Notes: generated by a model not told the origin, from the letters alone. Positions 2,919-49,719 are shown, counted from the first letter of the stretch. The stretch is DNA of 59,749 bases from Thainema sp. (GCA_052168235.1 JBQLZK010000048.1:1-59749); one strand, 5' to 3'. Numbers and translations: made by a program.

Positions 2919-3022
2919 ATACGAAGTCCAGTTGAAAACCCATAATTCAATTTTCTGTAAAATGCTTGCCGAGCAGCATTTCGCAGAAAATTGAATTGGG
3001 TTCTTATCCACAGACTTCATAT
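2919..3022 (+). mobile_element. MITE-like element, shell family 1, copy A
   Basis: Ends ATACGAAGTCCAGTTGAAAACCC and GGGTTCTTATCCACAGACTTCATAT; internal arms AATTCAATTTTCTG (2944-2957) and CAGAAAATTGAATT (2984-2997). Confidence 0.65.
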
Positions 3023-3060
3023 TAGTAAGCTTTCACCTGTATCCCCATCAGCCCAACTTC

Positions 3061-4947
3061 ATGTTGACCTCCCTTCAAATTGAAAATTTTGCCTTGATTG
3101 ATGCGCTGACCCTCGATTTTGGGTTGGGGCTGAATGTCCTCACTGGAGAAACAGGAGCGGGCAAGTCGATTATTCTGGACGCGATCGATGCCGTCTTGGG
3201 CGGTAAAGTGTCGCGGCGATTTGTGCGGACGGGAGCAGACCGGGCACTGATTGAAGCCACGTTTCACATTAATCCGGAGCTGATGGCAGGCGATCTAGAT
3301 GCCGACATCTCGCTGGAAAACAATCAGCTTGTTTGTACCCGTGAGATGACCGTCAGCGGCAACAGCGTCCGCAATCGTTCCAAAGTGAACGGCATCCAGG
3401 TGAATAAGCAGCAGATGGAAGCCCTGCGCGATCGCTTAGTTGAGATCACCGCTCAGGGGCAAACGATGCAGCTCGGTCGCGCTTCTCTCCAGCGCGAGTG
3501 GCTAGACGGCTTTGGCGGCAGTGAGGTACTACAGCAACGCGATAAGGTAGCAACAGCTTACGCAGCAGCGCAGCAAGCGCTTCAGCGATTGGAAAAGCGG
3601 CGGCAGGCGGAACAGGAACGGCTCCAGCAGCTTGACCTGTTTGAGTATCAGGCTAAAGAGCTGGCTCAGGCAGCGCTGACGGAACCGGACGAGCTAGAGC
3701 AGCTAGAGCAGGAATATCAGCGGTTGTCCCACAGCGTCGAACTGCAGCAGCAGAGCTATGAGGTCTATCAGGCGCTGTATCAAAACGAGCATGGTGGCGA
3801 TGCCTGTGCTGATTTGCTGGGCCGAGCCGAAGACCTGCTCAGCGATATGCTGCAGTACGACCCACAGATTCAGTCTGTCCTCGATATGGTGGCGAATGCC
3901 CTGGCACAGGTAGAAGAAGCGGGACGCCAGATCAACGCTTACGGTGCCGACATTGAAACCGATCCGGAACGTCTCCAGGAAATTGAACAGCGAATCAGCG
4001 TCTTGAAGCAAATTTGCCGCAAGTACGGCCCAACCCTGGCAGATGCGATCGTATATGACCAAAAAATTCGCGCTGATCTCGACGAAATCACGGGCGGCAG
4101 TCAGTCTGTGGAAGAACTGGAGCAGACCTATCGCGAAAAGCAAGCCGTACTGGAGTCGGCCTGTGAAAAGCTGTCCCAAATGCGACGGAAAACGGCCCAG
4201 CAGCTTGAACAGCGGCTGATTGAAGAACTGAAACCGCTGGCAATGGACAAGGTGCAGTTTACGGTGCAGCTTGTGCCGATTACGCCCACCAGTCACGGTG
4301 CGGATCGGGTGACGTTTCTGTTTAGTCCTAACCCCGGTGAACCGCCGCAGCCGCTGGATGAGGTGGCCTCCGGGGGTGAAATGAGCCGCTTTTTGCTAGC
4401 GTTCAAAGCCTGCTTCTCCCAGGTGGATGCTGTGGGCACAATGGTGTTCGACGAAATTGACGTGGGCGTATCCGGTCGCGTCGCCCAAGCGATCGCAGAA
4501 AAGCTGCATCACCTCAGCCGCAGTCACCAGGTGCTTTGCGTTACCCACCAGCCCCTGGTCGCCGCAATGGCCGATCAGCATTTCCGGGTCAACAAGCAGG
4601 TGATTGAAGAAACCTCTGCCGCTAGCTCTGCCAAAAACGGCAAGACCAAGAAAGCCACAGCCGAAGACATTCGTACCGTTGTACGCGTCGCCCCGCTGGA
4701 TACCGACGAGCGGCGGGAAGAACTGGCCCAGCTAGCGGGTGGCCCGACAGCACAGGAGGCAATCACCTTTGCTGATGCCCTGTTGTCCCAGGCCAATACG
4801 ATACGGGAATCGCGCTCATTCGAAGTGGCAGAACAGAACGGCAAGGGGTCTGCCAACGGAAACTCCAGTGCAACATCGGCATCTAGCTCGACTTCCACCC
4901 AATCCCGCTCTAAATCCTCCCGCTCCCGATCAAAATCCAAACGTTAG
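3061..4947 (+). CDS. recN: DNA repair protein RecN
   Basis: Walker A GETGAGKS, signature SGGE, Walker B FDEID, central coiled coil. Confidence 0.95.
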   Translation: MLTSLQIENFALIDALTLDFGLGLNVLTGETGAGKSIILDAIDAVLGGKVSRRFVRTGADRALIEATFHINPELMAGDLDADISLENNQLVCTREMTVSGNSVRNRSKVNGIQVNKQQMEALRDRLVEITAQGQTMQLGRASLQREWLDGFGGSEVLQQRDKVATAYAAAQQALQRLEKRRQAEQERLQQLDLFEYQAKELAQAALTEPDELEQLEQEYQRLSHSVELQQQSYEVYQALYQNEHGGDACADLLGRAEDLLSDMLQYDPQIQSVLDMVANALAQVEEAGRQINAYGADIETDPERLQEIEQRISVLKQICRKYGPTLADAIVYDQKIRADLDEITGGSQSVEELEQTYREKQAVLESACEKLSQMRRKTAQQLEQRLIEELKPLAMDKVQFTVQLVPITPTSHGADRVTFLFSPNPGEPPQPLDEVASGGEMSRFLLAFKACFSQVDAVGTMVFDEIDVGVSGRVAQAIAEKLHHLSRSHQVLCVTHQPLVAAMADQHFRVNKQVIEETSAASSAKNGKTKKATAEDIRTVVRVAPLDTDERREELAQLAGGPTAQEAITFADALLSQANTIRESRSFEVAEQNGKGSANGNSSATSASSSTSTQSRSKSSRSRSKSKR

Positions 4948-4969
4948 TCGCCACCGTACCGTCGCCTTC

Positions 4970-6442
4970 ATGTTTCAAGCTACCCGTCGTCGATTAGCGC
5001 TTTGGTATGCTGCCGTGACCGCCGTCCTGCTGCTGCTGTTTGCTAGCGGCTTTTACTGGTATGTGCGGACAACACTGGTCGAGCGGATTGACGATACGCT
5101 GAGCCATGTAGTGGAAGTAGTACAGCGATCGCTCGTGATTGAGCCCGATCAAGACCAGTTATCTGATTCAATGGCCTACCCGCTGATGCACGTCAACGTC
5201 GAGGCCAGCTTCCGCAACAACGCCGATACGGTCGAAGATGACCACATCGACCTGGAATGGTTTAGCCCGACCGGAGAGCTACTGTGGACGACGTTTTCAA
5301 CCCCGATCGACGTGCCCGTTCACGTCAATCCCAAAGGTGAGACGGTACATACTACGCCCGATCATCTAATGCGGCAGGTAACGCAGCGGCTGCAGATGGG
5401 GCGGCAGGTGCTGGGCTATCTGCGGGTCAGCCATCCCTGGTTTGAGGTAACGAAACCAACTCGTCGGCTGCTGCTGGATTTGGGGATTGGCATTGTGCTG
5501 ATTGTGGCAACCGTCGGGGGGCTGGGCTGGTTTTTGTCTGGACTTGCGATCGCACCTGTACGGGAGTCATATCAGCAGCTCAAGCAGTTCACGGCGGATG
5601 CCTCTCACGAACTGCGGAATCCAATTGCGGTGATTCAAACCAATGTGCAGGTGGCGCTGGCTGATCCAAAACTGGATGCCGATTTTCAGCGCTATCAGCT
5701 CAAGGTGATCGAGCGATTAACTCGACGGCTAGGGCATTTGGTAGACGACCTGCTGTTTCTGGCCCGTCAGGATAGCGGCATGAGTCCGCCTCAGTTTCAG
5801 CCTGTGGAGATGGATGCGCTGCTAGTGCAGGTGCTGGAGGAACAGCAGGCCATTGCCCTGGATAAGTCCATTACTCTGTCGCTTCAGTTGGACGAAGAAG
5901 CGAAGGTTGAACCCGCTGCCCCCCGTTCGTCCTTGCCCGTTTCGGCGACGACCACCGTTGGAACGGCTGCTAGCCCCGCTGTTGAACTGGATGCGGCTCT
6001 GACAATTATGGGCGATCGCGATCAGCTAATTCGGCTGCTCACCAACTTAGTGAGCAATGCCATTCAATACACTCCGGCTGAGGGAGACGTAGAACTCAGT
6101 GCCTGCTGGATAATGGCACCACAGCCAACCCTCCAGGTGCAGGTTCGCGATACGGGAGTTGGCATTCCGGCAGAGTCTTTACCGCTGCTATTTGATCGGT
6201 TCTATCGTGTTGATCCAGCCCGAACTCATAACCAACAATCCCAAACGGCGAAGAGTACCGGATCGGGCTTGGGACTTGCGATCGCACAGGTAATCGTGAC
6301 CAATCATCACGGTTTCATCCGCATTGACAGCGTGGTGAATCAAGGCACAACTGTAACCGTAACGCTGCCCCAATCGCAGGAAGCTGCTCGGAATGGCTTG
6401 CCTAATTCCGCAAAACCAAAGGTCAAGCAAAATCTGGGTTGA
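4970..6442 (+). CDS. Membrane sensor histidine kinase, ManS/Hik27-like
   Basis: Two TM segments, H-box DASHELRNP, N/G boxes; start at ATG 4970 (MFQATRRRLALWY) avoids overlap with recN. Confidence 0.85.
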   Translation: MFQATRRRLALWYAAVTAVLLLLFASGFYWYVRTTLVERIDDTLSHVVEVVQRSLVIEPDQDQLSDSMAYPLMHVNVEASFRNNADTVEDDHIDLEWFSPTGELLWTTFSTPIDVPVHVNPKGETVHTTPDHLMRQVTQRLQMGRQVLGYLRVSHPWFEVTKPTRRLLLDLGIGIVLIVATVGGLGWFLSGLAIAPVRESYQQLKQFTADASHELRNPIAVIQTNVQVALADPKLDADFQRYQLKVIERLTRRLGHLVDDLLFLARQDSGMSPPQFQPVEMDALLVQVLEEQQAIALDKSITLSLQLDEEAKVEPAAPRSSLPVSATTTVGTAASPAVELDAALTIMGDRDQLIRLLTNLVSNAIQYTPAEGDVELSACWIMAPQPTLQVQVRDTGVGIPAESLPLLFDRFYRVDPARTHNQQSQTAKSTGSGLGLAIAQVIVTNHHGFIRIDSVVNQGTTVTVTLPQSQEAARNGLPNSAKPKVKQNLG

Positions 6443-6710
6443 AATTAATCCCTGCCCGTAGAAAGAGATCAGCCGCTCAAAATGTACCGGAAGTAGAAGC
6501 GCATTGATCCCCATTGATAGATGTGGTCAAACTTTAAGATTTGTAATATTTGATCAGGTTCAATCTAGTTGCACCTGCAATTCGTTAGGTAATTGGCAAC
6601 TGCTAACAATTGCGATCGCTGGATGAAAGCTGAGTGGTAGTCGTATGGGCTACGCTCCCCCTTACGTCTTAGGTGAAAGACGTTCAAACGCAACGTTTAA
6701 GAGGTTTTCT

Positions 6711-7577
6711 ATGACAATTGCAATTAAAGAAGACATTGTATATATCCTGCTGCAAAAAGTTCGGGAATCCGAGGGCGAACAGGGGTTAAATATTTCCCAA
6801 ACAGACTTTGCAGGTCGGCAAGTTGGCACCCGTGATCTGCTTGGACACCTCGATTTTTTGAATCAAAAGCAATACATTGATGCTGACTTTGCGGGAAACG
6901 CTTATGCGACCCAAGCGGATGTGCCATCGGTCGTCAATCCAGATGAGTTTGATCTGCGGATTGCGAATACGCTCGGATCAAGCGATGGCCCACTCCCCCA
7001 CCTGATTGCTTTCAAAAAAGCCGATCTGACTGAGAAAGGCCGCAAAATGCTGCAAAAGATGGAAGAGAATCCACCTAAAGCACTGAAAGAAGGTCCTAGT
7101 ATCCCGATTGTTGACGAGCACATGCCCTTTTTAGAAAAGGTGATGCTCAAAGGCAATCTAGAAGACATTTTTGATGCTAGAGATGCAACGAATGTTGTGT
7201 TTCGCGTGATGCGAGATTTGATGACGACTGAGACATCGGATCGCGTTGCAGCCGATCTATCGGGAACAGAAGCGGCAGAAAGCAAGGACAAGTCCCTACA
7301 AATGGATATGTCCGAGTTATGGAAAGATATGAATCCGATCGTAGGCTTTTTAAGTCGGGTTCGTCCGCCCTGGCAAGGTCCTGGCATCTTCAAAATTGAA
7401 GATCACGACTTCTTTTTCCGCGTCGCCCGTGAAGGTGGTTTACCTCCCTCAACAAATGGTGAAACTGTGACAGCGGCTGTGTTCTCTGCCACCAAAGAGC
7501 AGTTGTCACCAGAGCGCATTGAAGAGGTTGCCAGTTGGTTACCCGGCAAGGTCAGAACCTTGTGGGAAAAATCATAA
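6711..7577 (+). CDS. DUF2267-domain protein with N-terminal extension
   Basis: C-terminal half FLEKVMLKG...ATNVVFRVMRD...AVFSATKEQL...LPGKVRTLW; GAGG RBS upstream of ATG 6711. Confidence 0.7.
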   Translation: MTIAIKEDIVYILLQKVRESEGEQGLNISQTDFAGRQVGTRDLLGHLDFLNQKQYIDADFAGNAYATQADVPSVVNPDEFDLRIANTLGSSDGPLPHLIAFKKADLTEKGRKMLQKMEENPPKALKEGPSIPIVDEHMPFLEKVMLKGNLEDIFDARDATNVVFRVMRDLMTTETSDRVAADLSGTEAAESKDKSLQMDMSELWKDMNPIVGFLSRVRPPWQGPGIFKIEDHDFFFRVAREGGLPPSTNGETVTAAVFSATKEQLSPERIEEVASWLPGKVRTLWEKS

Positions 7578-7666
7578 GCGTAGACATAAGCGTAACTTTG
7601 AGACATAGCCCAACTCACAGCTCAATTGAGAGAGATCCAATCGCCGTGTGAATGGATTCCTCGCTT

Positions 7667-7691
7667 ATCGCCCCAATGGGGCGATTTTTTT
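7667..7691 (+). terminator. Rho-independent terminator
   Basis: Hairpin ATCGCCCC-AAT-GGGGCGAT followed by a T-run, 90 bp after the DUF2267 stop. Confidence 0.75.
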
Positions 7692-10108: not shown

Positions 10109-10154
10109 GAACATTTAAGAGGGAGGTGCGATCGCACCTCCCTCTTAAATGTTC
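10109..10154. terminator. 46-bp perfect palindrome centred on HIP1, likely bidirectional terminator
   Basis: GAACATTTAAGAGGGAGGTGCGA|TCGCACCTCCCTCTTAAATGTTC between convergent genes. Confidence 0.65.
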
Positions 10155-14391: not shown

Positions 14392-14406
14392 TTATTTCTA
14401 ATTCAA

Positions 14407-14436
14407 TGTAGGGGCGAATGGCCATTCGCCCCTACA
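14407..14436. repeat. GTAG-type REP palindrome (30 bp, perfect)
   Basis: TGTAGGGGCGAATGG|CCATTCGCCCCTACA between convergent WD40 and rpiA genes; identical 28-mer at 40957-40984. Confidence 0.85.
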
Positions 14437-14463
14437 CAGGGTTTAACGAGAATCGGGAATGAA

Positions 14464-16686: not shown

Positions 16687-16775
16687 TCACGAATCTGCGG
16701 AAACCAATTTAATTTTCAGCAAGCTGTTCGCGACTTGCTGAAAATTAAACTCGGGTTTTATAGCCAGATTCGTAT
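16687..16775 (-). mobile_element. MITE-like element, shell family 1, copy E (diverged)
   Basis: Terminal IR ACGAATCTG/CAGATTCGT; GGGTTTTATAGCCAGATTCGTAT end; 16-bp arms TTTAATTTTCAGCAAG/CTTGCTGAAAATTAAA. Confidence 0.55.
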
Positions 16776-16991: not shown

Positions 16992-17100
16992 CTAGTGCTT
17001 TGTCCAGTGTGTTTTGAGGGGTAGAAAAATTTTGAAAATATTGCGGCGCAATATTTTCAAAATTCTTCTACCCCTCATTTCTACTTTGACAGACTACTAG
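16992..17100. mobile_element. CTAG-bounded MITE-like element with 30-bp-arm palindrome
   Basis: Outer ends CTAGTGCTTTGTC and GACAGACTACTAG; arms 17015-17044 and 17048-17077 have one mismatch; apex GC-GGC-GC. Confidence 0.65.
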
Positions 17101-20164: not shown

Positions 20165-20436
20165 AGGTCTTTACTCTCAACCGTTTTTAGGGGATCGTAT
20201 CACCGGGTTTTGATGCTACTACCGACTTCGTGAGGATCTGTTACAGTTCTACAAACTTAATTGTTGCAGGACTTAACGTTTTAATCTGTTTTCGAATGGT
20301 AAGGCCATCTCATACCGCATTGGTGCACTACGACCAGTTCTAGTTTTGCGTGAAATGCACACGAGACAAGCTTTTTGAACAAAAATTATTCTGAGATTTT
20401 ACAACTTGCTGCCATCCGGCTTGGCATTTTGCGAAA

Positions 20437-23221: not shown

Positions 23222-24634
23222 GTGGCGTTAACCGATAACAACGATTCACCAACAGCAGCACAATCCACCATTTCGCGGCGAGAACTGCGAGAACTGGTGC
23301 GATCGCAACTGCAAGCGCTGCTGGAACAGCAAAATCTCCAGGGAGCCAAAGCGCTCTTGGGGCCAGTTCAGCCTGCCGATATTGCCGAGGCCATTGAGGG
23401 ACTCCCCGAAGCCATGCAGGCCATCGCCTTTCGGCTACTGCCCAAAACCGAAGCAATTGAAGTTTACGAACATCTCGAATCCAGCGTCCAGCAAACTCTG
23501 GTTGAAGAATTTAAGCGCCAGGACGTGATCGACATCGTCGATAAGATGTCGCCGGATGACCGAGCGCGCCTGTTTGATGAGCTACCTGCTAAGGTGGTGC
23601 GGCGGCTGCTCCAGCACCTCAGCCCGGAAGAACGCCGCGCCACCAACCTGCTGCTCGGGTATGAACCCGACACGGCAGGGCGGATCATGACGCCGGAGTA
23701 TGTCTCCCTGAAGGAGAACTGGACGGTCGGCCAAGCGCTGGACTATATCCGCACCAAAGCGGGCGTCAGTGAGACCATTTACTACCTCTACGTCACAGAT
23801 GCGGCCCGACAGCTGACAGGCATCTTGTCCCTGCGCGCCCTCGTCACCGCCCAACCGGAACAGTTCATCGGCCAGATCATGACCCGCGAAGTGGTATCGC
23901 TGCGTACTGATGCTGACCAGGAAGAAGCAGCCCGCATGATTCAGCGCTACGACTTTCTGGCCGTGCCCGTGGTGGATACGGAGCAGCGGCTAGTGGGGAT
24001 CATTACTGTTGATGACGTGATTGACATCCTGGAAGAGGAAACCACAGAAGATATCTATACCCTGGGCGGCGTCCAGTCCGGCGGAGATAATTATTTTCAA
24101 ACCAACCTGCTGACCGTGGCCCGCAAGCGGGTGGTGTGGCTGTGTGTCCTGCTGCTGACTAATACCGTCACGACTGCTGTGATTCGCAGCCAGCAGAGCA
24201 TTATTGAGCAGGTAGCCGTGCTGGCCGCCTTCATTCCCCTGCTGATTGGTACGGGCGGCAACGTGGGCGCGCAGTCGTCTACCGTCGTGATTCGCGGCTT
24301 GAATACCGATGAAATCCAAACCGATAAAGCCGGACGCACAATTATGCGGGAAGCGATCGCAGGTGCGTTTCTGGGACTCATGCTCAGCGTGATCGTCACC
24401 ATCTGGGCGTATTTCCTCCAGGGCAACTTAGCCGTGGCGCTGACGGTCGGCATTAGCTTAATCGGCATTTCGGTACTCGCCTCCACCGCTGGTTCAGCAC
24501 TACCCTTTCTTTTCCAGACGCTGAAGCTCGATCCGGCACTGATGTCTGCTCCCTTTATCACCACAGCTGTAGACGTGCTGGGCGTGTTGATCTACCTCAG
24601 CTTGGCCCGACTAATTTTGCGAATTAGTGCCTAA
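23222..24634 (+). CDS. mgtE: Magnesium transporter MgtE
   Basis: N-domain, CBS pair (TAGRIMTPEY), TM domain GTGGNVGAQ...DPA...DV. Confidence 0.95.
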   Translation: MALTDNNDSPTAAQSTISRRELRELVRSQLQALLEQQNLQGAKALLGPVQPADIAEAIEGLPEAMQAIAFRLLPKTEAIEVYEHLESSVQQTLVEEFKRQDVIDIVDKMSPDDRARLFDELPAKVVRRLLQHLSPEERRATNLLLGYEPDTAGRIMTPEYVSLKENWTVGQALDYIRTKAGVSETIYYLYVTDAARQLTGILSLRALVTAQPEQFIGQIMTREVVSLRTDADQEEAARMIQRYDFLAVPVVDTEQRLVGIITVDDVIDILEEETTEDIYTLGGVQSGGDNYFQTNLLTVARKRVVWLCVLLLTNTVTTAVIRSQQSIIEQVAVLAAFIPLLIGTGGNVGAQSSTVVIRGLNTDEIQTDKAGRTIMREAIAGAFLGLMLSVIVTIWAYFLQGNLAVALTVGISLIGISVLASTAGSALPFLFQTLKLDPALMSAPFITTAVDVLGVLIYLSLARLILRISA

Positions 24635-24736
24635 TATGAAATCCGTGTATGGGAACCCTGTTTATTTTTTGTGAAATGCTCGCTTAGCGAGCATTTCACA
24701 AAAAATAAACAATGGGTTTTCAACCGGATTTCATAT
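24634..24736 (-). mobile_element. MITE-like element, shell family 1, copy C
   Basis: Perfect 12-bp terminal IR ATATGAAATCCG/CGGATTTCATAT; 25-bp perfect arms at 24659-24683 and 24687-24711, apex GC-TTA-GC; begins in the mgtE stop codon. Confidence 0.72.
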
Positions 24737-24753
24737 AAATTTCGAATCTGCAC

Positions 24754-24791
24754 CAAAAGAAAGGCTCTGCGATCGCAGAGCCTTTCTTTTG
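24754..24791. terminator. 38-bp perfect palindrome centred on HIP1, likely bidirectional terminator
   Basis: CAAAAGAAAGGCTCTGCGA|TCGCAGAGCCTTTCTTTTG between convergent mgtE and nfuA. Confidence 0.7.
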
Positions 24792-26372: not shown

Positions 26373-26776
26373 AGCTTTGCCTCAATAAATGGAAATGGAA
26401 ATGGAAAAGGGGGTTGGGCGGCGTTGATGGCGAAAATAACCGAATTCGCAAATCACGCCAGTTGTATTTTCTTATGAAAATGCTAGCAATTCTTGTATTT
26501 CATCGAACGAGATGCTTGAGCGGTATCTTATCTTTTCTAATCCTTTTCCACAGGATAGGTATCTTATCTTTCATCTCCTGCCCCTGATCAGAACGATCAG
26601 ATCAGAATCAACATCCCAACTGGAAGGAGCGATCGCAGCCAGGTTGACAACGGCAAAATGCAGTCAGTGCTCCAGTTGCTTTTCCAGATCTTGCAGTTGA
26701 AGCTGAGCGACTTTTGCCAACCTGACGCATTGAGCGCCAAGACAAGCTTACCAACGCCAATTTCTCACTCTTTAAT

Positions 26777-26866
26777 TAGACCTTATCGGAAATTGTTTTG
26801 TAGCGCGGCGGAGCCGCGCTACAAAACAATTTCCAACCCCAAAAACTTTATTTCCAATAAAGTCTA
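26777..26866. mobile_element. 90-bp MITE-like element, shell family 2, copy 1
   Basis: Ends TAGACCTTATCGGAAAT and ATTTCCAATAAAGTCTA; 22-bp perfect arms around GC-GGA-GC; near-identical copy at 46504-46593. Confidence 0.82.
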
Positions 26867-27151
26867 TTGAGATTGCGCCTGGTTTGCCATTAGCAAATCG
26901 CGATAGCATTCCACAAAATTGGGTTCTTCGAGCATGGCCGACATGCAGGCCATATCGCCTTGGTAGTTCTGATTAATCTGCTGTGCCTTGGCTTGGAGGT
27001 GGGGCGGTACATATCTCAAATCGACTGGCAAGCCGTGATAGAGCAAAAACTCGGCCAGTTGCTCATGGTGGATATAAATGCCTTCATCATGTAAGCGCTG
27101 CAAAATGTTGGTAAATGTAGGCCAGTCGCGAGACTGGTGCGGTGAAGTCAT
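26864..27151 (-). CDS. Hypothetical protein (95 aa)
   Basis: ATG-started ORF of plausible composition; its stop codon lies in the end of the adjacent element. Confidence 0.6.
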   Translation of the reverse strand: MTSPHQSRDWPTFTNILQRLHDEGIYIHHEQLAEFLLYHGLPVDLRYVPPHLQAKAQQINQNYQGDMACMSAMLEEPNFVECYRDLLMANQAQSQ

Positions 27152-29523: not shown

Positions 29524-29625
29524 GTCCGAAGTCCAGTTAAAAACCCGATGATTTATTTTTATGAAAGCTTAGCTTAGCCAAGCTTTCATAAAAATAAATC
29601 GGGTTCTTATACACGGACTGGATAT
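29524..29625 (+). mobile_element. MITE-like element, shell family 1, copy B
   Basis: CGAAGTCCAGTTAAAAACCC ... GGGTTCTTATACACGGACTGGATAT; 21-bp perfect arms at 29550-29570 and 29580-29600. Confidence 0.7.
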
Positions 29626-39458: not shown

Positions 39459-42400
39459 TTATGTTCTGGCTTCAATGTCGGCTTCGGCTTGATGTGCGAT
39501 CGCACGGAGTTGTTCCAGCATGTCAGACGGTGCTGATTGCCATAAACCTCGCTGCTCAGCTTCGAGTAGACGTTCGGCCATATCGCGCAGTGCCCAGGGA
39601 TTGTGCTGCTGGATAAACTCTTGTACATGAGGATCGAGCATGTAAGCCTCGGTTAGGCCCTCATACATGTAGTCCGCGACGCAGTGCGTGGTGGCATCGT
39701 AGGCGAAGAGATAGTCCAGCGTTGCCGCCATCTCAAAGGCTCCCTTGTAGCCATGCCGCATGACGCCGCTGATCCACTTGGGATTGACCACGCGAGAGCG
39801 GTAGACGCGGGCAATTTCCTCCTGTAGGCGACGCACTTTGGGATTCTCCGGTTGGGCATGATCGCCAAAGTAGGTGACGGGATTTTGCCCTTGGGTGGCG
39901 CGGATGGCGGCGGTTAAACCACCCTGAAACTGATAATAGTCATCGGAATCGAGCAGATCATGTTCGCGGTTGTCCTGATTGTGCAGCACAATTTGCATTT
40001 GCTGGAGGCGCTGCTGGAATGCTTCCGGGGCGGAGCGGCCTTCGGCTTGGCGACCATAGGCATAGCTGCTCCAGTTGATATAGGCACGAGCGAGGTCTTC
40101 GTCATCCGTCCAGTTCTGGGCTTCGATTAATCCTTGCAGTCCGGCTCCGTAGGCTCCCGGTTTTGAACCAAAAATGCGAAACCGCGATCGCACATTGGCC
40201 TGTCCTTCATTCAAACCTTGCGCTATCCAGTCTGCCGTTTCCTGCTGGACACGGTCAGCCAGGGGATTCAGGTCTGCGGGTTCGTCTAGACTGGCCACGG
40301 CTTCCACCGCCTGATCGAACAAGTCAATCAAATTGGGAAAGGCATCGCGAAAGAAACCGGAAATCCGCAGCGTCACATCTACTCGGGGTCGCCCCAAAAT
40401 CGACAGCGGCAAGATCTCAAAATCAACCACTCGCCGCGACGGGCCATCCCAAACGGGCTGCACACCGAGGAGTGCAAGAGCCTCAGCCCAGTCATCGCCT
40501 CCGGTTCGCATGGTGGACGTGCCCCACACGGAAAGGCCCAGGGTTTTGGGATATTCGCCTTGCTCCTGGGTGTAGCGAGCAATGAGGACTTCAGCCGCTT
40601 TGCGACCGACTGACCAAGCACTTTCGGTCGGAATGGCGCGAATGTCCACCGAGTAGAAGTTGCGTCCGGTGGGCAGCACTTCCGGGCGACCCCGCGTTGG
40701 CGCACCGGAGGGGCCACTGGGCACATACTCACCGCTGAGTCCCCGAATTAGCTGGGTAATTTCCTGGCGAGTCTGCTGGAGCGCAGGCAGGAGGTGCGTC
40801 GCGATCCATTGAAGCTCCTGTGCAAGAGATCCCCCTAAATCCCCTGATCCAGTTCCCCCTTTTTTAAGGGGGGTTAGGGGGGATCGAGCAGCAACTTGGC
40901 GGTTTTCTGAATTGCCGCTAAGTGTAGATCCCCCTGAATTCACCTTCAAGTCCTGGGTAGGGGCGAATGGCCATTCGCCCCTACGTAACGATGGTTCTAG
41001 ATATTCGGAGATTTGCAGGTTGTTTTCCTCCAGCAAACCCTCTACTAATCGCGCAGCTTCAATCTCCAACTGCTCTACCACGTCGCCAACCGTGCGGCAG
41101 AGTGCTCCATTCAGCGTCACGCTTGGCTCTAGCACCTCGCCAAAATCCTGCGTTAGTGGGTCAATGTCCAAATTCCAGGCCTGTGCGATCGCACGTGTTA
41201 AACCCATTCGTCCACCCGCTGGCGATCGAGCAATGGCAATGATCAGGTCGCGCAACTGCCGTCCTTGGGGACACTGTCCATAAATATGTAAGCCATCGCG
41301 AATTTGGGCTTCTTTGAGTTCACAGAGATAGCCGTCAAGTTGCGTCAGGAGTGTGGCAGTATCGGCGGGGTCATCAGTCGGGTTCGACAACTCTTCTATT
41401 AAATGTTCGGTGGTGACGAGGTTGAAAATGCGATCGCGGATTAAACCCAAGCGCGATGGATCGAGCGTCTGGGCTTCGTAATACTCGTCTACCAACTGTT
41501 CCAGCTGTTCCAAGGGGCCATAGAGTTCCGCGCGGGTGAGCGGTGGCGTCAGGTGGTCAAGAATCACCGCTTGGGCGCGACGTTTGGCTTGGGAACCTTC
41601 GCCGGGGTCGTTGACGATAAATGGGTACAAATGGGGCAGCGGGCCGAGCGCCACTTCGGGATAGCAGCTTTCCGATAGCGCAATGCTCTTGCCCGGTAGC
41701 CATTCCAGATTGCCGTGCTTGCCGACATGGACAATCGCCTGAGCGCCAAAGTGGTGGCGTACCCAGTGGTAGAACGCCAGATAGGTGTGGGGTGGTTCTA
41801 AATCTGGAGCGTGATAGTTGAGCGCTGGATCGAGGTCATAGCCACGCGCGGGCTGAATGCCGACAAAGACGTTGCCTAAGTAGATACCAGGAACCGGAAA
41901 GACAGGTGTATCAGCAGCAGGAAGCTGCACGGCATACTGAGCGGCATCGCCCCAGCAATCGCAGATTCCCTGCTGAGCGGCTTGGGGAATTTGCGAGAAA
42001 TAGGACTGGTAATCTGCGATCGCAACTTGCTGCCCCTCGCGCCGACCTGCTTGCCAGAGCGCTCGACTTTCGGCATCGTTGGTCACTCCGGCAGTTAAGC
42101 GCTGAATCAGGTCTGCGGTGGATGTAGGGATATCGGCATTGAGCGTGTAGCCTGCTTCCTGTAGCGATTTGAGAATTTCCAAACAGCTTGCAGGCGTGTC
42201 CAAACCGACACCGTTCGCTAACCGACCGTCGCGGGTGGGATAGTTAGCCAGGATGAGGGCAATTTTGCGATCGCAAACCGGAGTTTGGCGCAGGTTTACC
42301 CAGTTCAGCGCCAGATCGGCCACGAACTGCACCCGATCAGCTAGTGGTTCGTAACCGACAATATCGGTTTCCAGGGCTTCACTGCGGCCTTGGACGGCTT

Positions 42401-43535
42401 TAAAGGAGACGGCCCGCGTGATGATCCGTCCGTCTACTTCCGGCAGCGCCACATTCATAGCCGTATCGCGGGGGGACAAACCCTGAGTTTGCGCCTGCCA
42501 CTGATCGAGCGTGCCGCCGCTGAAGATAGTTTGCAAAACGGGCACGTTCAGCTGTCGCCAGAGATCGAGATTGGGTGATTCGTCCTGAAGCTGAGCGACG
42601 GAAAAGCTAGTGGCGTTGAGTAAAACCTGAATCGGAGCGGCATCCTTGGGCTGGAAGAGCTGTAGCAGTTCGTCCTGTACGTCCAAGTCGCGGGGCGATG
42701 AGACAAAAATCGGCACAGGTTCTAGACCGCGTTCGGTCAGCGCATCGCAGAGGGCATCAACGGGCGCGGTGTTGCCTGCTAAATAGTGGGCGCGGTAGAA
42801 CAGAATGCCGACTTTGGCAGAGGACTTATTCTCCCTAAATTCTTCATCCTTGGAGCTATTGTCCATACACACCTTGGATAGATCCTCAAAATCCCGCACT
42901 GATCCCCCTAAATCCCCCTTAAAAAGGGGGAGCTTTGAGTCAGTTCCCCCCTTTTTAAGGGGGGCTAGGGGGGATCTCTGGGATGAGGGCACATAGCGCC
43001 CCACTTTGGGAATTACCTGGGGCGACGGTGGCTGATAATTGGTTCCCAGGCCCAGATCCGCCAGATACAGCAGCATTGACTGCACATTCTCCAGGCCGCT
43101 CTCGGTGAAGTAGCGCCAGATGCGGTTGGCCTGAGCCAGCGGCACAGTGGAATGGCTGATTAAATCTGGGTCAGGGCGATCGTCCCCAGGCAGTACTACT
43201 AGCTTGGCTCCGGTGCGCGTCACCGTGTCCTTCAAGACTTCTAGGCCGTAGCTCCAGTAGGTGCGCCCACCCAGCAGCCGCAACACGATGATCTGAGCCG
43301 CTTCCAGCACGTCTTCGGCATAGGTGTCAATCGTTAATTGTTGTTGAAGATTGAGCAGACTGGTCGTGCGCAGGGTAGGGAAATCGTCGGGAAGCTGAGA
43401 GAGTGCCCGTGCCAGCAGTTGGATCTCAGTGTCAGCAGCGGTTAAAACTGAGATCGCAGCCGGAGTTTGGTCAATAAAAACGACACCCTCTTGGTCGGGA
43501 TTCCATCCACCGGGAGTTGCGGCAATACGATGCAT
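39459..43535 (-). CDS. cobN: Cobaltochelatase subunit CobN
   Basis: MHRIAATPGGW start, HVGKHGNLEWLPGK, QIRDGLH, LPTGRNFY, DYYQFQGG; two low-complexity insertions. Confidence 0.95.
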   Translation of the reverse strand: MHRIAATPGGWNPDQEGVVFIDQTPAAISVLTAADTEIQLLARALSQLPDDFPTLRTTSLLNLQQQLTIDTYAEDVLEAAQIIVLRLLGGRTYWSYGLEVLKDTVTRTGAKLVVLPGDDRPDPDLISHSTVPLAQANRIWRYFTESGLENVQSMLLYLADLGLGTNYQPPSPQVIPKVGRYVPSSQRSPLAPLKKGGTDSKLPLFKGDLGGSVRDFEDLSKVCMDNSSKDEEFRENKSSAKVGILFYRAHYLAGNTAPVDALCDALTERGLEPVPIFVSSPRDLDVQDELLQLFQPKDAAPIQVLLNATSFSVAQLQDESPNLDLWRQLNVPVLQTIFSGGTLDQWQAQTQGLSPRDTAMNVALPEVDGRIITRAVSFKAVQGRSEALETDIVGYEPLADRVQFVADLALNWVNLRQTPVCDRKIALILANYPTRDGRLANGVGLDTPASCLEILKSLQEAGYTLNADIPTSTADLIQRLTAGVTNDAESRALWQAGRREGQQVAIADYQSYFSQIPQAAQQGICDCWGDAAQYAVQLPAADTPVFPVPGIYLGNVFVGIQPARGYDLDPALNYHAPDLEPPHTYLAFYHWVRHHFGAQAIVHVGKHGNLEWLPGKSIALSESCYPEVALGPLPHLYPFIVNDPGEGSQAKRRAQAVILDHLTPPLTRAELYGPLEQLEQLVDEYYEAQTLDPSRLGLIRDRIFNLVTTEHLIEELSNPTDDPADTATLLTQLDGYLCELKEAQIRDGLHIYGQCPQGRQLRDLIIAIARSPAGGRMGLTRAIAQAWNLDIDPLTQDFGEVLEPSVTLNGALCRTVGDVVEQLEIEAARLVEGLLEENNLQISEYLEPSLRRGEWPFAPTQDLKVNSGGSTLSGNSENRQVAARSPLTPLKKGGTGSGDLGGSLAQELQWIATHLLPALQQTRQEITQLIRGLSGEYVPSGPSGAPTRGRPEVLPTGRNFYSVDIRAIPTESAWSVGRKAAEVLIARYTQEQGEYPKTLGLSVWGTSTMRTGGDDWAEALALLGVQPVWDGPSRRVVDFEILPLSILGRPRVDVTLRISGFFRDAFPNLIDLFDQAVEAVASLDEPADLNPLADRVQQETADWIAQGLNEGQANVRSRFRIFGSKPGAYGAGLQGLIEAQNWTDDEDLARAYINWSSYAYGRQAEGRSAPEAFQQRLQQMQIVLHNQDNREHDLLDSDDYYQFQGGLTAAIRATQGQNPVTYFGDHAQPENPKVRRLQEEIARVYRSRVVNPKWISGVMRHGYKGAFEMAATLDYLFAYDATTHCVADYMYEGLTEAYMLDPHVQEFIQQHNPWALRDMAERLLEAEQRGLWQSAPSDMLEQLRAIAHQAEADIEART
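40828..40984. repeat. Cluster of palindromic repeats inserted in frame in cobN
   Basis: GATCCCCCTAAATCCCC...AAGGGGGGTTAGGGGGGATC (40828-40885), a degenerate half copy at 40927-40950, and the 28-bp REP at 40957-40984. Confidence 0.8.
42901..42976. repeat. GATC-bounded C/G-run palindromic repeat inserted in frame in cobN
   Basis: GATCCCCCTAAATCCCCCTTAAAAAGGGGGAGCT...AGTTCCCCCCTTTTTAAGGGGGGCTAGGGGGGATC; encodes SPLAPLKKGG...LFKGDLGGS. Confidence 0.82.
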
Positions 43536-43775: not shown

Positions 43776-46298
43776 ATGCCTAATTCTTCCGCGTCAACAC
43801 TTTATCGGGTTTTGCCGCAGGCTGTATTGCGTCAGGTGCAACAGCTTCTGGTGCAAATGCAAAGCGAAATCGATGCATCCTGTTTGGTCACCCCGCAAGA
43901 TGTGCGATCGCAGTTTGCTCTGACCGGCCAGCCAACCGATCAAGCGGATCATCAGAATCAGTCGTTTTTGCTGTTGCTATCCCCCCAATTTCGCATCCTG
44001 TTGCAGTGGGGTGTAGCAGCTCATTCAGATCAGACTCAGGCGGATCAATCTCAAGCTGACGCAGATCAATCGAATAACCAGACTCGCTATCCGGTTTCGC
44101 TAATATTCGATCCAGGTGCGATCGCGCAGTTTGTGACCGACATCGTGCAGCAAACTCAGCTCTCGTCGGATACGGAATTGGGGCAACAGCTCATACCGCA
44201 TCAACAAGCCGAAGAGCCCAACGATCCGACGCTCCAGAGTGATTTTACACTGCGGCTTTTGGCTGAGCTGGAATCGGCCCCTGCCAGTGCGCCCGCCGCC
44301 GCTGTCAACGGGTCACATGAATCAATTGACCTCAACGAGTGGAATGACCCTCCTCTAGCCTGCCGCCCCTACCAGATTGCCTTAATGAAGGAAATCGAGC
44401 AGGGACTACTGCTGGGCCGAGTCGCGAATCAAATTCGCCAGAGCCTAGACTTGAACGAGATTCTACAAACGGCAGTTGAGCAGGTACGGCAACTGCTCCA
44501 GGTGGATCGGCTGGTCATTTACCAGCTCGATTTGAGCGACCAATCTATTTCCTGGGCGACAACCCCAACCCAGCCATCGCCGCAGAACTCATCACAAATC
44601 GATCAGATCTCACGCAATGGCGCAGCGCTTAAGCCTGCTGCATCTGTTGCGAAACAGGCGGGCGCTAAACAGACAGAACAAAGCAGTTCCTCGGCCCAAA
44701 TTGACATTCGCCACGCCGAAAAAACCGGATACGTGGCCTATGAATCCAAGGCTTCTGAGCAAATTGTCTCCGTGCTAAACGTCACGGAGCAGCGCTGCTT
44801 TCTCGATATTCATGCCCAACAGGCGAAATATCAGGTTGGACAAGTAACCGCCATCGCCGATATCGAAACAGCCTATGCCAAATTGCCCTGTCTGCGCAAT
44901 TTTCTGCGGCAGGCCCAAATTCGCTCCAAGCTGATTGCCCCAATTGTTGTGCAGGAGCATCTTTGGGGGTTAGTAATTGCCCATCAGTGCTTTGAACAGC
45001 GGCAGTGGACGCCCCAGGAAGAAACCTTCATGCAGTTGGTTGCCGATCAGCTTGCGATCGCAATTCGCCAAGCTCGCCTCTACTCCCAACTTCAGCAGCA
45101 GAAGCAGACTTTGGAACAGCGGGTAATTGAACGGACGCAAGATCTGCATGATGCCCTCTTGGCCGCCCAAGCTGCCGATGCCGCCAAAAGTGAGTTCCTG
45201 GCCACCATGAGTCACGAGTTACGCACGCCGCTCACCTGCGTCATCGGCATGTCCGCGACCCTATTGCGCTGGTCATTTGGTGAACTCAACCCCCGGCAGC
45301 GCAGCTACATTCAAACCATTCACGACAGCGGTGAACGGCTGCTGGACTTAATTAATGACATTCTGGATATGTCTCAAATTGAGGCCGGTCGGATCATTTT
45401 AGATATTCAACAGTGCTCAGTTACGGCATTGGTTTCGCGAGTCATGCAGTCCGTGCAAAACCAGGCCGAACGCAATCAGGTGCAGCTAGAGTGCAATCTC
45501 AACCTCAAGCCTGAGCAAGATTCATTTTCTGCCGATCCGCGTCGTCTACAGCAAATTCTGCTCAACCTGCTGACCAACGCGATTAAGTTTACGCCGGCGG
45601 AAGGAACGGTCAACCTCAAGGTGCGTTTAGAGAAAGAAGCAGCCATTTTCCAGGTCGAAGACACGGGAATTGGCATTTCGGCAGAGCAACAACCCTTTCT
45701 CTTTCGCAAATTTCAGCAGCTTGATTCCTCCCGCCAACGTAGCTATGAGGGAACTGGACTGGGCCTGGCCTTGACCAAGCAGCTAGTCGATTTACATGGC
45801 GGCAGTCTGGATGTGAAATCTCAAGTGGGAGTTGGCTCCGTCTTTACCGTGCGCATTCCCACCCAACCCTACAGCACAACGACTAAAGCCGCCAATAGTA
45901 GTCCCGAAGTGCTGCCGCTGACGCAGCGCGTCCTGCTGTTCGAAGAGGATGAAGATGCCGCCAATATTATCTGCGACATGCTAATGGCGGCGGGACATCA
46001 GGTGATCTGGATGATGGATGGCGACGCAGCGGTCGAGCAGGTGAAGCTGATGGAACCAGCATTGGTTATGGTCGGCATGGATCTCGCCAACATCGATCGC
46101 TGTCAGCTCATCCGCCAGTTTCGCGAGACAGCCAATCATTCTCCCCTCAAGATACTGGCCATTATGGCCGATGGGTCAACCGACCTTTGCCAACAGTGCC
46201 TGAATGCGGGGGCTGACGACTGCATTGTCAAGCCCGTTCGGCCCAGACGACTGCTGGAGAAAATCGATAAGCTTTTCTACTCAGCGCCCGTTACCTAA
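43776..46298 (+). CDS. cikA: Circadian input kinase CikA (GAF-HK-pseudo-receiver)
   Basis: GAF domain, H-box MSHELRTPLTCVIGMSATLLRW, HATPase, receiver with LVMVGM where the phospho-Asp is expected. Confidence 0.85.
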   Translation: MPNSSASTLYRVLPQAVLRQVQQLLVQMQSEIDASCLVTPQDVRSQFALTGQPTDQADHQNQSFLLLLSPQFRILLQWGVAAHSDQTQADQSQADADQSNNQTRYPVSLIFDPGAIAQFVTDIVQQTQLSSDTELGQQLIPHQQAEEPNDPTLQSDFTLRLLAELESAPASAPAAAVNGSHESIDLNEWNDPPLACRPYQIALMKEIEQGLLLGRVANQIRQSLDLNEILQTAVEQVRQLLQVDRLVIYQLDLSDQSISWATTPTQPSPQNSSQIDQISRNGAALKPAASVAKQAGAKQTEQSSSSAQIDIRHAEKTGYVAYESKASEQIVSVLNVTEQRCFLDIHAQQAKYQVGQVTAIADIETAYAKLPCLRNFLRQAQIRSKLIAPIVVQEHLWGLVIAHQCFEQRQWTPQEETFMQLVADQLAIAIRQARLYSQLQQQKQTLEQRVIERTQDLHDALLAAQAADAAKSEFLATMSHELRTPLTCVIGMSATLLRWSFGELNPRQRSYIQTIHDSGERLLDLINDILDMSQIEAGRIILDIQQCSVTALVSRVMQSVQNQAERNQVQLECNLNLKPEQDSFSADPRRLQQILLNLLTNAIKFTPAEGTVNLKVRLEKEAAIFQVEDTGIGISAEQQPFLFRKFQQLDSSRQRSYEGTGLGLALTKQLVDLHGGSLDVKSQVGVGSVFTVRIPTQPYSTTTKAANSSPEVLPLTQRVLLFEEDEDAANIICDMLMAAGHQVIWMMDGDAAVEQVKLMEPALVMVGMDLANIDRCQLIRQFRETANHSPLKILAIMADGSTDLCQQCLNAGADDCIVKPVRPRRLLEKIDKLFYSAPVT

Positions 46299-46503
46299 AT
46301 CAAATCCAGAATTGGTCAATGGCTCTGCAATATGAATATGGCGCATAAATATGGCGCATAAATATGGGGTATCAACCTCTTTGGGATTTTGACGTAACGT
46401 GCTTTTTGCGATCGCACATTTCAGCGTTCTCATCCATGTATTTGATGGATGTAACAGGCAATACTTACACTAAGTGAGATCATCCGTCTCAGCGTATGAC
46501 CAT

Positions 46504-46593
46504 TAGACTTTATCGGAAATTGTTTTGTAGCGCGGCGGAGCCACGCTACAAAACAATTTCTAACCCCAAAAACTTTATTTCCAATAAAGTCTA
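46504..46593. mobile_element. 90-bp MITE-like element, shell family 2, copy 2
   Basis: Differs from 26777-26866 at 3 of 90 positions. Confidence 0.82.
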
Positions 46594-46655
46594 TTCATTC
46601 AGTCTAATCCAGTGAATTCAATGCCTACCCCTTTGCTCAGAGAGCCAATTAGTTT

Positions 46656-47372
46656 ATGACGGATATGACGGAAGCCGCATCATCTCAAGCTGCCATTAAA
46701 GACCTACAGGGCGGTTTGGTGGTGTCCTGCCAAGCCCCCGTAGGTTCACCTCTGCATCAGCCAGAGGTTATTGCTGCGATCGCACAGGCGGCAGACAATC
46801 AAGGTGCGGTTGGGGTACGTATTGACTCACCCGATCATATTCGCGCCGTCAAAATGAACGTTTCAGTGCCGATTATCGGCCTCTGGAAACAGGTCATTCC
46901 TGATTATGAGGTATATATCACCCCCCAGTTCCACCACGCTCAAGCCGTAGCTGAAGCCGGAGCAGACATTATCGCAATCGATGCCACGCTGCGCGATCGG
47001 CCCGCAGGCGAAACGGTGCCGGGGCTGATTCGGCGAATTCATGAGGAGCTGGGTAAACCCGTCATGGCCGATGTGGATAGTCTGGAAGCTGCGATCGCAG
47101 CTGCAGAAGCGGGAGCCGATCTGGTCGGCACGACACTGTTCGGCTATACGGCCAATACCCAAATGGAAAAGCCGCCCGGATTTGACCTGCTAGCACATAT
47201 GGTGCAGCGGCTGTCTGTCCCCGCCATCTGCGAAGGCGGCATCGCTTCCCCAGAAATGGCCCGCTATGCCCTCGATCTGGGAGCCTATGCCGTCGTTGTG
47301 GGCACAGCGATTACTGGCATCGATGCGCAAGTGCGCAACTATTGCGATGCGATTGTGCAGATTACGCTTTAA
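46656..47372 (+). CDS. nanE: N-acetylmannosamine-6-phosphate 2-epimerase
   Basis: LVVSCQA, PIIGLWK, VYITP, DIIAIDAT, GTTLFGYT, EGGI. Confidence 0.92.
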   Translation: MTDMTEAASSQAAIKDLQGGLVVSCQAPVGSPLHQPEVIAAIAQAADNQGAVGVRIDSPDHIRAVKMNVSVPIIGLWKQVIPDYEVYITPQFHHAQAVAEAGADIIAIDATLRDRPAGETVPGLIRRIHEELGKPVMADVDSLEAAIAAAEAGADLVGTTLFGYTANTQMEKPPGFDLLAHMVQRLSVPAICEGGIASPEMARYALDLGAYAVVVGTAITGIDAQVRNYCDAIVQITL

Positions 47373-47402
47373 ATCAGCGTACATTTGACCAGCGGCCAAT
47401 CC

Positions 47403-48404
47403 TCAACCTGTACGTTGAGGAATATAGGCTCCTGCCCAAGCTTTCCACAAGGTTTGGCTGATGGTGGTTAGAGTCGTAGAGGAAGGCGGAAACGTCAGCG
47501 CCTTCACCGCTGTGTGCCAACTCGCAGGAATGCTCAGAGGAGCAGCAATACCCAGTACGATGCCCGTCAGTGCGATCGCAGATTGAGAGTGGGGCTGTAG
47601 CAAATGGGCACAGCGCAGCGCCTGCGTAAAATCATAGGCAAAATGGGTGAGAACATACAGCGCAGTTGCGATCGGGTGCAGTTCAACGGGCAGTGACTGC
47701 ATCAGAGAACGCGCCACCATCACAGTTGGCGCTTGGCTCACCACGGCGACTAGCTGCTCATCGTGGAACTGAGATTGTTGCAATTGAGGATTCTGCAGCC
47801 CATTCACGACCCAGTCCAGATCGCTGCGGATCTGGTTCAATAACGGATTCACTGCCGTTGGCGGACTGTAGCCGCAACGGGATGAAGCAAGGGGATGAGC
47901 AAGCAAGTAACGTAGGGTCAGTGCCGTTAATGTCAGAGACAAGGCTGCATCTGAACCGGCATCCGCAGCCTGAATTTGCTGAGCAATATATGCGATCGCA
48001 GCGGGTCGATCTGAAACCAGCAGCCAGAGGGGCAACAGCGTAACGGCCTGCTCGGTGAACACAGCGGATTTGGGTTCTGCAGACCGCACATACTTGGTCT
48101 GGATATCCAGCCACGACAGTCCCGGCTGACGGGGATGCAGGCTGTCGATCAGGTGCTGACCCAGCCGTACTGCTTGAGCCGTGAGCGGCAGATGAGCGCT
48201 ACAATCAGACGCTAGCGGTTGACTCAGTGCCGAACTGGGCCTGGGAGCAACCCACCGTTTAGCAGGAACGCTGGAACTGGATGTGTCCCAATCCGATTGC
48301 CCCGCTATCATGGCTTCTGCGATCGCAAGTCCCAACCAGGCACCCTGAAACTGCCGCTGTGTCCAATTGTGTCCGCTCTGTTGTGTCATCATAAAGATTT
48401 TCAT
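47403..48404 (-). CDS. Degenerate ADP-ribosylglycohydrolase-like protein
   Basis: FQGAWLGLAIAEA N-terminus and ALTGIVLG...SIPASW C-terminus; acidic catalytic motifs not visible. Confidence 0.55.
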   Translation of the reverse strand: MKIFMMTQQSGHNWTQRQFQGAWLGLAIAEAMIAGQSDWDTSSSSVPAKRWVAPRPSSALSQPLASDCSAHLPLTAQAVRLGQHLIDSLHPRQPGLSWLDIQTKYVRSAEPKSAVFTEQAVTLLPLWLLVSDRPAAIAYIAQQIQAADAGSDAALSLTLTALTLRYLLAHPLASSRCGYSPPTAVNPLLNQIRSDLDWVVNGLQNPQLQQSQFHDEQLVAVVSQAPTVMVARSLMQSLPVELHPIATALYVLTHFAYDFTQALRCAHLLQPHSQSAIALTGIVLGIAAPLSIPASWHTAVKALTFPPSSTTLTTISQTLWKAWAGAYIPQRTG

Positions 48405-48522
48405 GATTTTTGCGAGTTTTATCCCTCAATGGCGTAAACCCGGTAGAGGACAAACCCAAGTTTAGGTGATCCGTTCAGTCAAAATTTGGGGTTGATATTT
48501 GTTTGGAGGAAGGGGAATCGCG

Positions 48523-49578
48523 ATGCATCAAAAACGGTACTCAACACCTACACCCGTAACTGCGCCAGCATCTGTATCAGAAACTAGATCAGAATCAAAA
48601 ACTGCACCAGAAACTGCGATCGCGCCTCTAGTTGGGCGTCTGTTTCTCATTAGCAGTTTAATCGGCGGCGGTTTCAGTCTATACCCATTGCTGCCCGCAA
48701 TGGCCCAAACGGCGACCCAAACAATGGCCCAAACTGCCGATGAATCGGCAGATGCCGACGACACGGCTCCAGCCGCTGCTGAATCCTCCGAATCCGACAC
48801 CACGACCGAATCATCCGAATCATCGGAGAATGCTCCCGCTAATGACCGACGTTCACCGCTTTCCACCGCTCGCCCCAATCTGCGCGTGGGCAGCGAGGGG
48901 CAGGCTGTTGCCGAACTCCAGGCATTGCTGAAGCTCCTAGGCTACTACACAGGAGCCGTGGATGGTCTCTACAGCGAAGAAACGGCCCGCGCCGTTTCCG
49001 CCTTTCAAACCGCTGCCGGATTAGCAACAGACGGCGTAGTTGGCCCTGCCACCTGGGGCACACTGCTGCCTGCTGCTCCAGTTGCTTCCCCTACAGCGGC
49101 TAACCAAACGCCGGACTCTGCAGCAGTTACGGTGACTGATTTTCCCAGGCCCGTCCTGACGCCGGGTGAGTTAGCCAGCGGCGCGTCCTCTACTACTGAG
49201 ACGGCGACCGATAGCGCAACCTCCAATTCCACGACCAATCCAGCCGCACCCTCTACACCTGCAGCAGCCACTGATTCCGATCCAGCACCAGATACACCTG
49301 CCGCTGAATCGGCTGAAACGGAGTCAACGGAAACGGCCAGTTTGCCTACCGATGACAGCGATCCGGCGGCCTTCCCGACCCTGCGCCTTGGGGCATCCGG
49401 GCCCGCTGTAGAACGGCTCCAGGAACGGCTCCAAAGTTTGGGGCATTATCAAGGCGCAATTGATGGCATTTTTGGCGAGCGCACGCAAGAAGCGGTGAGA
49501 GCCGCCCAGCAAAGTAATCAACTGAGTGTTGATGGGGTAGTTGGCCCTGCCACCTGGGAAGTCTTGCTCGATCGCTAG
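48523..49578 (+). CDS. Exported protein with two peptidoglycan-binding domains
   Basis: Two LRxGxxG.AV..LQ..L..LG.Y.G..DG.....T..AV...Q....L..DGVVGPATW units with S/T/P-rich linkers. Confidence 0.88.
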   Translation: MHQKRYSTPTPVTAPASVSETRSESKTAPETAIAPLVGRLFLISSLIGGGFSLYPLLPAMAQTATQTMAQTADESADADDTAPAAAESSESDTTTESSESSENAPANDRRSPLSTARPNLRVGSEGQAVAELQALLKLLGYYTGAVDGLYSEETARAVSAFQTAAGLATDGVVGPATWGTLLPAAPVASPTAANQTPDSAAVTVTDFPRPVLTPGELASGASSTTETATDSATSNSTTNPAAPSTPAAATDSDPAPDTPAAESAETESTETASLPTDDSDPAAFPTLRLGASGPAVERLQERLQSLGHYQGAIDGIFGERTQEAVRAAQQSNQLSVDGVVGPATWEVLLDR

Positions 49579-49604
49579 GGACACGGCAATGCCGCGTCCC
49601 TAGC
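49574..49604. repeat. REP-like palindrome overlapping the stop codon
   Basis: GCTAGGGACACGGC-AAT-GCCGCGTCCCTAGC. Confidence 0.7.
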
Positions 49605-49620
49605 CCAAAGATCTCACCTT

Positions 49621-49719
49621 ATATCGCGTCCGCGTATAAAAACCCAGTTATTTTGTCTGAAGCGCTTGCTTCACAAGCGCTTCAGACAAAATAACTGGGT
49701 TTTCAGCCGAACTGAATAT
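49621..49719 (-). mobile_element. MITE-like element, shell family 1, copy D
   Basis: ATATCGCGTCCGCGTATAAAAACCC ... GGGTTTTCAGCCGAACTGAATAT; 30-bp perfect arms at 49639-49668 and 49674-49703. Confidence 0.68.

Follow-up and report, generated by a model that had tools for sequence, protein, structure and literature searches.

Introduction

RUP and Correia are repeats that pair with IS630. In the available parts of one source (PMC3184786), RUP, Correia and ERIC stand as MITEs (miniature inverted-repeat transposable elements) of the IS630/Tc1-mariner type: gene-less elements of about 100 bp with terminal inverted repeats and strong fold-back, present as hundreds of intergenic copies with empty orthologous sites, and with ends in common with an IS630 element. 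A repeat with these same properties occurs five times in the 59,749-nucleotide stretch of Thainema sp. DNA analysed here (GCA_052168235.1, JBQLZK010000048.1:1-59749; the whole stretch is called the window below). Unlike the RUP/Correia/ERIC-type MITEs, it duplicates a 3-bp TNA target and not TA. By the classical IS630/Tc1-mariner rule, elements insert at TA and duplicate these 2 bp, and the characterised IS630 member ISY100 duplicates TA (PMC2170065, in the parts available). The MITE studied here does not follow this rule and, because ISY100 duplicates TA, we class it as an element that works in the manner of an IS630 MITE and not as a classical member. A second described process concerns the hairpin that the element carries: replication template switching yields homogenisation of the arms together with inversion of the spacer, according to the accessible portions of PMC8604942 and PMC8794818. 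Here we describe the repeat as a TNA-duplicating MITE of about 101 bp that likely spread in trans through the transposase of an IS630 element and whose arms change together most likely via template switching, a combined reading to which we give a probability of roughly three in four.

Results

A dispersed family with one homologous core

All five window repeats were recovered with the places and conserved ends that an original prediction, made from the sequence, had given them. An iterated profile yielded 293 non-overlapping matches (E<0.01) in this 7.5-Mb draft genome (G000), while the reversed-genome control gave 0 matches at E<1. The consensus is about 101 bp long and holds no gene, and its terminal inverted repeats read TATG/CAAGTCCG ... 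CGGACTTGATA. Among 154 full-length copies, mean pairwise identity was 68%, none being identical and none above 94%, and 0/154 lay inside long open reading frames (ORFs). The family is also present in a congener (G001, 6.6 Mb), the sole match when one copy was searched by BLAST over 30 relatives. A DNA search of a plasmid collection gave only 15 short matches at chance level, and viral contigs gave 0 matches to the left-end pattern.

The cores of the five window copies had been taken for different sequences, and a variable hairpin cargo had been proposed from this. However, all cores in the family are variants of one consensus, to which the arm columns of the window cores show a mean identity of 82%. 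Since this consensus is shared, the cores are diverged homologues and not interchangeable cargo, and both claims were given up. Subfamilies with their own symmetric arms do exist. The twelve strongest covarying column pairs of the 154 full-length copies all fell on the inner stem, and an alignment of the 5 window copies with 57 G001 copies showed two-sided changes at 15/15 predicted pairs.

Paired arm changes after insertion

Copies filled at orthologous sites in G000 and G001 allow changes that arose after insertion to be read directly. Across 14 orthologous pairs, 270 stem pairs included 15 paired Watson-Crick changes, 21 single changes and 3 other doubles, with only 3.0 doubles being expected under independence (p=5e-7). 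Transversions made up 9/15 of the paired changes (hand count) versus 38/141 of the flank changes (p=0.015). The loop was exactly inverted in 2/14 orthologous pairs, and one orthologous pair, in flanks of about 95% identity, combined such an inversion with a paired change and with the mirroring of a 2-base bulge to the other arm. Within G000, rare alleles were paired in 159/335 inner-stem cells versus 12/185 terminal-repeat cells. The T-run and the A-run were of equal length in 121/154 copies (shuffle 39), and, with the ends as reference, the loop was seen either way round (31:41 in G000 and 25:18 in the G001 stretches). Arm symmetry is maintained after insertion, and the arm-copying mechanism that the original prediction had proposed as one of its options is borne out by these paired changes and loop inversions. 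Replication template switching is most likely the arm-copying process. It would copy one arm from the other and flip the loop, with the continuous inner stem, some 22-26 bp long and centred on GC-N3-GC, as the probable copying substrate, and the bulged, asymmetric outer part would mostly escape conversion.

Several results weigh against this reading. Six of the 20 orthologous filled pairs had to be dropped for identity under 75%; single, uncorrected changes outnumber paired events (21 versus 15); and correction is incomplete, the stem being perfect over 22 pairs in only 58/154 copies. A copy's own arm was at least as good a match as another copy's arm in 94/154 copies. Because the arms of other copies often match as well, some of the covariation seen across the genome is due to common descent. 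Finally, the comparative data fit template switching and hairpin-directed repair or recombination alike, and they are compatible with some added selection.

Arm copying is not confined to the element

For 801 hairpins outside the family, orthologues in G001 were sought: 154 were unclear, 7 were dropped for low identity and 23 could be used. In these 23 unrelated orthologous hairpins, 20 of 470 pairs had undergone a paired change versus 4.2 expected, and of the 7 loops that had changed, 2 were inverted. A second MITE family, whose ends differ, has both loop orientations (23:17 and 11:10), and a GC-N3-GC centre is common to the studied family, this second family and 166/801 other hairpins. Across the class, the paired-end pattern turned up in 25/401 genomes while the control gave 0 matches, and the same-ended loci of other cyanobacteria represent many different MITEs. 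Of 20 such loci sampled, 14 had a 3-bp repeat, only 4 had a long perfect inner arm, and 16 were without a long hairpin. The original prediction had itself named end motifs occurring independently of palindromic cores as an observation that would speak against an undescribed system. The unrelated hairpins behaving alike and the 16/20 same-ended elements without a long hairpin together point to a host process and not to an element-specific system. Copying specific to the element, and with it the undescribed system once proposed, was rejected on account of the same paired changes in unrelated hairpins of the same genome.

A different DNA-level host route would account for much of this as well. 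A hairpin or cruciform could be extruded and its mismatches then repaired from one side of the stem to the other, or the two arms could recombine and thereby invert the centre; either explains the paired changes, the mirrored indels and the host-wide occurrence equally well. The shared GC-N3-GC centre also fits such a route, GNA-loop DNA mini-hairpins being very stable. However, stem repair alone leaves the loop uninverted and inversion alone leaves the mismatches, whereas intermolecular template switching does both correction and inversion (PMC8604942, in the parts available). We regard the repair or recombination route as unlikely. Also improbable is a bolder proposal, in which a dedicated hairpin-editing pathway of unusual activity would recognise GC-N3-GC hairpins on DNA and re-symmetrise and flip them well above the template-switch background, a DD31E IS630 clade with a non-canonical 3-base cut favouring TNA (including TAA and TGA stops) having seeded hundreds of them at gene ends across the phylum. 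In a further reading, transposition would depend on the hairpin, as with REPINs, such that symmetric copies alone multiplied and covariation was inherited from symmetric founders. This reading can draw on the subfamilies with symmetric arms of their own and on the compensatory changes described for REPIN spacers (PMC3116915, as far as available), but it is scarcely credible given that a locus acquires paired changes once the element is in place, that no near-identical copy pairs were seen, and that long hairpins are missing from the 16/20 same-ended elements and from a 28-bp ends-only element with a TTA duplication in G000. That minimal member, consisting of the two ends alone, lies at C2:276694-276721.

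Related palindromes were observed along the way. In two genomes of a distant genus (G281 and G350), loci L157 and L158 belong to a parallel family that shares the ends and has inner hairpins that are long and perfect but vary in their arms; exact pattern matches numbered 46 and 23, respectively. Loci L149 and L159 are same-ended MITEs with a GTAG REP-like palindrome as core.

Target duplication and empty sites

With the element ends set at TA...TA, the flanks are read as TNA. Both ends could be anchored in 68 copies of 233, and an exact 3-bp direct repeat was present in 33 of these 68. TNA stood on both sides in 36 copies, with the same middle base in 32/36 (shuffle mean 13.2, max 24), and the G001 stretches gave the same middle base in 18/25 (shuffle 7.2, max 17). 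The orthology comparison took in 2.7 Mb of G001 and classed 15 sites as empty and 20 as filled. A single TNA stood at the junction in 6 of the 9 empty sites shown out of the 15. The empty sites include TGA and TCA targets without any TA, making a TA duplication impossible there; duplication of TA was rejected as a candidate on this ground. As a point on the other side, most sites were unclassifiable (43/82 and 77/110). The duplication is read as 3-bp TNA from flanking sequence that would look the same if 1 bp were duplicated and the ends reached one base further. Multiple copies, terminal inverted repeats, the TNA duplication and empty orthologous sites establish the element as a MITE, and the non-autonomous nature attributed to it earlier holds on account of the target duplication and the empty sites. 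An attC-like cassette site was also considered and is ruled out by the target duplication, the dispersed copies and the DDE-type ends.

TAA and TGA being stop codons, 9/68 anchored copies sit exactly on a stop that served as target, copy C of the window among them. Selection on an RNA hairpin, either a terminator or an mRNA stabiliser, could be imagined to keep the arms of such transposon-derived copies matched via two-step compensatory mutation. Many copies lie directly after stop codons, copies are under-represented between divergent genes (26/153 versus 25-31% of spacers), the stems are long and stable, and bcr1 of Bacillus has been described as an element under such selection (PMC3184786, in the parts available). 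However, orientation relative to the upstream gene is even (33:37), there is no clear excess between convergent genes (30/153 versus 15-16%), and G-U versus A-C mismatches on the likely transcribed strand stand at 52:39 (p=0.21, with limited power). The paired changes are mostly transversions without a wobble intermediate, loops invert, and Rfam gave 0 matches in the window. Among 22 listed sequencing runs, none contained as much as half of the words, three RNA runs having small shares. No sign of RNA-level selection was found in this weak, sequence-only test, and we consider selection of this kind quite improbable as the cause of arm symmetry.

ISAva6-like IS630 elements as the likely mobiliser

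In another cyanobacterial genome, a 1166-bp element has the same ends as the MITE, is flanked by TTA and encodes an IS630 transposase that a single stop interrupts. This transposase matches NF033545 with 147.9 bits (cut-off 100) as well as the Pfam domains HTH_33 and DDE_3, and its relatives include the annotated ISAva6, which is recorded in NC_007410.1. Both ends were found in 44/85 insertion sequence (IS) loci, with consensus ends TACTAAATCCG comparable to TATG/CAAGTCCG of the MITE, and TNA was present on both flanks in 39/44 of the two-ended loci. The spacing from D to E was 31 in 29/29 motif matches (DD31E). In isolate records, two-ended IS copies including ISAva6 had TNA on both sides in 9/9 cases and an identical triplet in 6/9. 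A plasmid IS copy of Nostoc flagelliforme carries the ends TATCAAGTT, which come close to the MITE's own. An ISAva6-like IS630-family transposase is the likely mobiliser of the MITE, as judged from shared ends and target alone. Such a DD31E transposase would spread the MITE in trans, and insertion would duplicate the 3-base TNA target; we infer cut-and-paste chemistry with a 3-base stagger. An IS5 or ISAzo13 partner, guessed earlier from the 3-bp repeat, was replaced by this IS630 element with the same ends.

Other observations count against the assignment. The flank triplets differ in 3/9 isolate IS copies, and in metagenome contigs the IS flanks share the middle base in only 15/39, which is not significant (shuffle 10.3, max 22); mis-joined repeats or flank exchange could lie behind this mismatch. 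Agreement between the ends of the MITE and those of the IS extends to no more than about 11-14 bases. A transposase of the matching clade was not found by tblastn, with a profile of 69 relatives or by a genome search in the draft assemblies G000, G001, G281 and G350, and the five other IS630-type places of G000 have different ends. Scans with the end motifs gave no long element bounded by them in G000, and no empty site was found for the IS within a Stanieria plasmid. The transposase bounded by the same ends that the original prediction had proposed to look for is represented by IS630 elements in other cyanobacteria, with none found in draft G000. The family looks old and currently inactive in this genome, as no two copies exceed 94% identity and no cognate transposase was found. 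Two G000 copies (C52:26-103 and C81:30-107), both at contig ends, are split at the loop TTA by an element with ends GA(G/A)CCTATCCGAAAA.

The five window copies and neighbouring palindromes

Copy limits are given here without the duplicated 3 bases. Copy A (2920..3021, + strand, 102 bp, flanks TGA/TTA) sits between an ORF and an SMC_N/AAA (RecN-like) gene; it is missing from the orthologous G001 site, which falls 2 bp short of a clean target. Copy B (16687..16774, - strand) is reduced to 88 bp by a central deletion and is the most diverged of the five, with E=0.15 versus the final genome-wide profile. G001 has this copy too (L002), and the stems of the two differ by one paired change and two single ones. 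Copy C (24635..24735, - strand, 101 bp) has perfect 26-bp arms and lies between two TAA target duplications (+ strand), at 24632..24634 on the left and 24736..24738 on the right, the left one being the stop codon of an mgtE gene at 23222-24634. It was not seen after the orthologous gene in G001, where the flank is not alignable. Copy D (29525..29624, + strand, 100 bp) is located between serA-like and prmA genes with flanks TCG/TCA (TCA/TCA in G001), and compared with its G001 counterpart (L004) it shows three paired arm changes, with flank differences at 4/110 bases. Copy E (49622..49718, - strand, 97 bp) has perfect 30-bp arms and flanks TTA/TTA on the + strand. It shows five arm differences, all mirrored, and a different loop relative to L005, the G001 copy after the orthologous gene; the two are likely orthologous, although the right flank of L005 does not align. 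A possible sixth copy, heavily decayed, at 20323..20413 (- strand) gave a weak profile match (E=0.24) and is present in G001.

All five copies fold far better than shuffled sequences (DNA z -7.2 to -13.4, with 0/200 shuffles as good). Perfect arms of 14-30 bp had been ascribed to each of them. This is so for C and E, the only copies with fully perfect arms, while A, B and D keep a perfect outer segment of 14-21 bp and are mismatched nearer the loop.

Other repeats lie among these copies. The second MITE family occupies 26775-26868 and 46502-46595; it is about 92 bp long, this pair is 97% identical, and there are 92 full copies in the genome. G001 has a studied-family copy at the site of window position 26775, and the second family was found inserted into studied-family copies (G000 C13:42054). 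The octamer GCGATCGC (HIP1) is abundant, the host being a cyanobacterium. Perfect palindromes at 10109-10154 and 24754-24791 have GCGATCGC as their centre, as do 23/801 non-family hairpins, and their arms have perhaps grown by copying around the octamer. GTAG-type REP-like palindromes lie at 14408-14440 and 40952-40984, and such palindromes elsewhere in the genome show paired changes versus G001. A long imperfect hairpin with 54-nt arms (16992-17100), directly after a Crp-family gene, is unrelated to the studied family. Palindromic repeats with G/C runs (CCCCCTTTTTAAGGGGG type) were found at 40851-40885 and 42901-42976, in or near an ORF of 1358 amino acids.

Discussion

Covariation between paired bases is the usual proof of a functional RNA. 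The family described here provides a clean natural data set in which DNA copying is seen to give junk-like repeats strong base-pair covariation, and for cyanobacterial intergenic hairpins wobble pairs, orientation and loop inversion need to be checked before covariation is taken as a mark of RNA function. With hundreds of homologous substrates and their orthologues, the rate and reach of template switching become measurable in a bacterium. Furthermore, an IS630 clade that is widespread in cyanobacteria appears, together with its MITEs, to duplicate TNA in place of TA, which, if confirmed, represents an exception to the Tc1/mariner/IS630 rule. Searches that left most subscription journals outside brought up no publication that describes an IS630 clade duplicating TNA or that reports template switching for MITEs of this kind, and ISfinder may already record the former.

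The MITE kind and template switching are both known. The family itself is apparently unlisted, as judged by size comparison alone: Nezha, Muzha, MaeMITEa-h and SDR elements are likewise small dispersed inverted-repeat elements of cyanobacteria, of which the first three are set apart by size (Nezha 130-170 bp, Muzha about 154, MaeMITE 150-435). It may yet prove identical to a catalogued family, and published MITE lists, for example that of PMC2779907, may contain relatives. REPINs are not known to have a duplication-and-DDE partner of this kind. They resemble the studied MITE in being hairpins of about 100 bp with compensatory changes (PMC3116915, in the available parts), but the MITE lacks the REP doublet of REPINs with RAYT and instead combines simple terminal repeats with a DDE-type 3-bp duplication. 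Its likeness to quasipalindrome template-switch mutation extends to arm homogenisation, multiple paired changes, mirrored indels and spacer inversion (PMC8604942 and PMC8794818, as far as available); unlike in the published cases, the homologous substrates number in the hundreds and are scattered over a single bacterial genome. With the ISAva6-like IS630 elements it has in common the ends TA(C/T)NAA(A/G)TCCG and TNA on both flanks, while it carries no transposase and the ends of ISAva6 itself are more distant than those of the closest relatives. Within this comparison, the TNA duplication is the unusual, non-canonical feature of the family.

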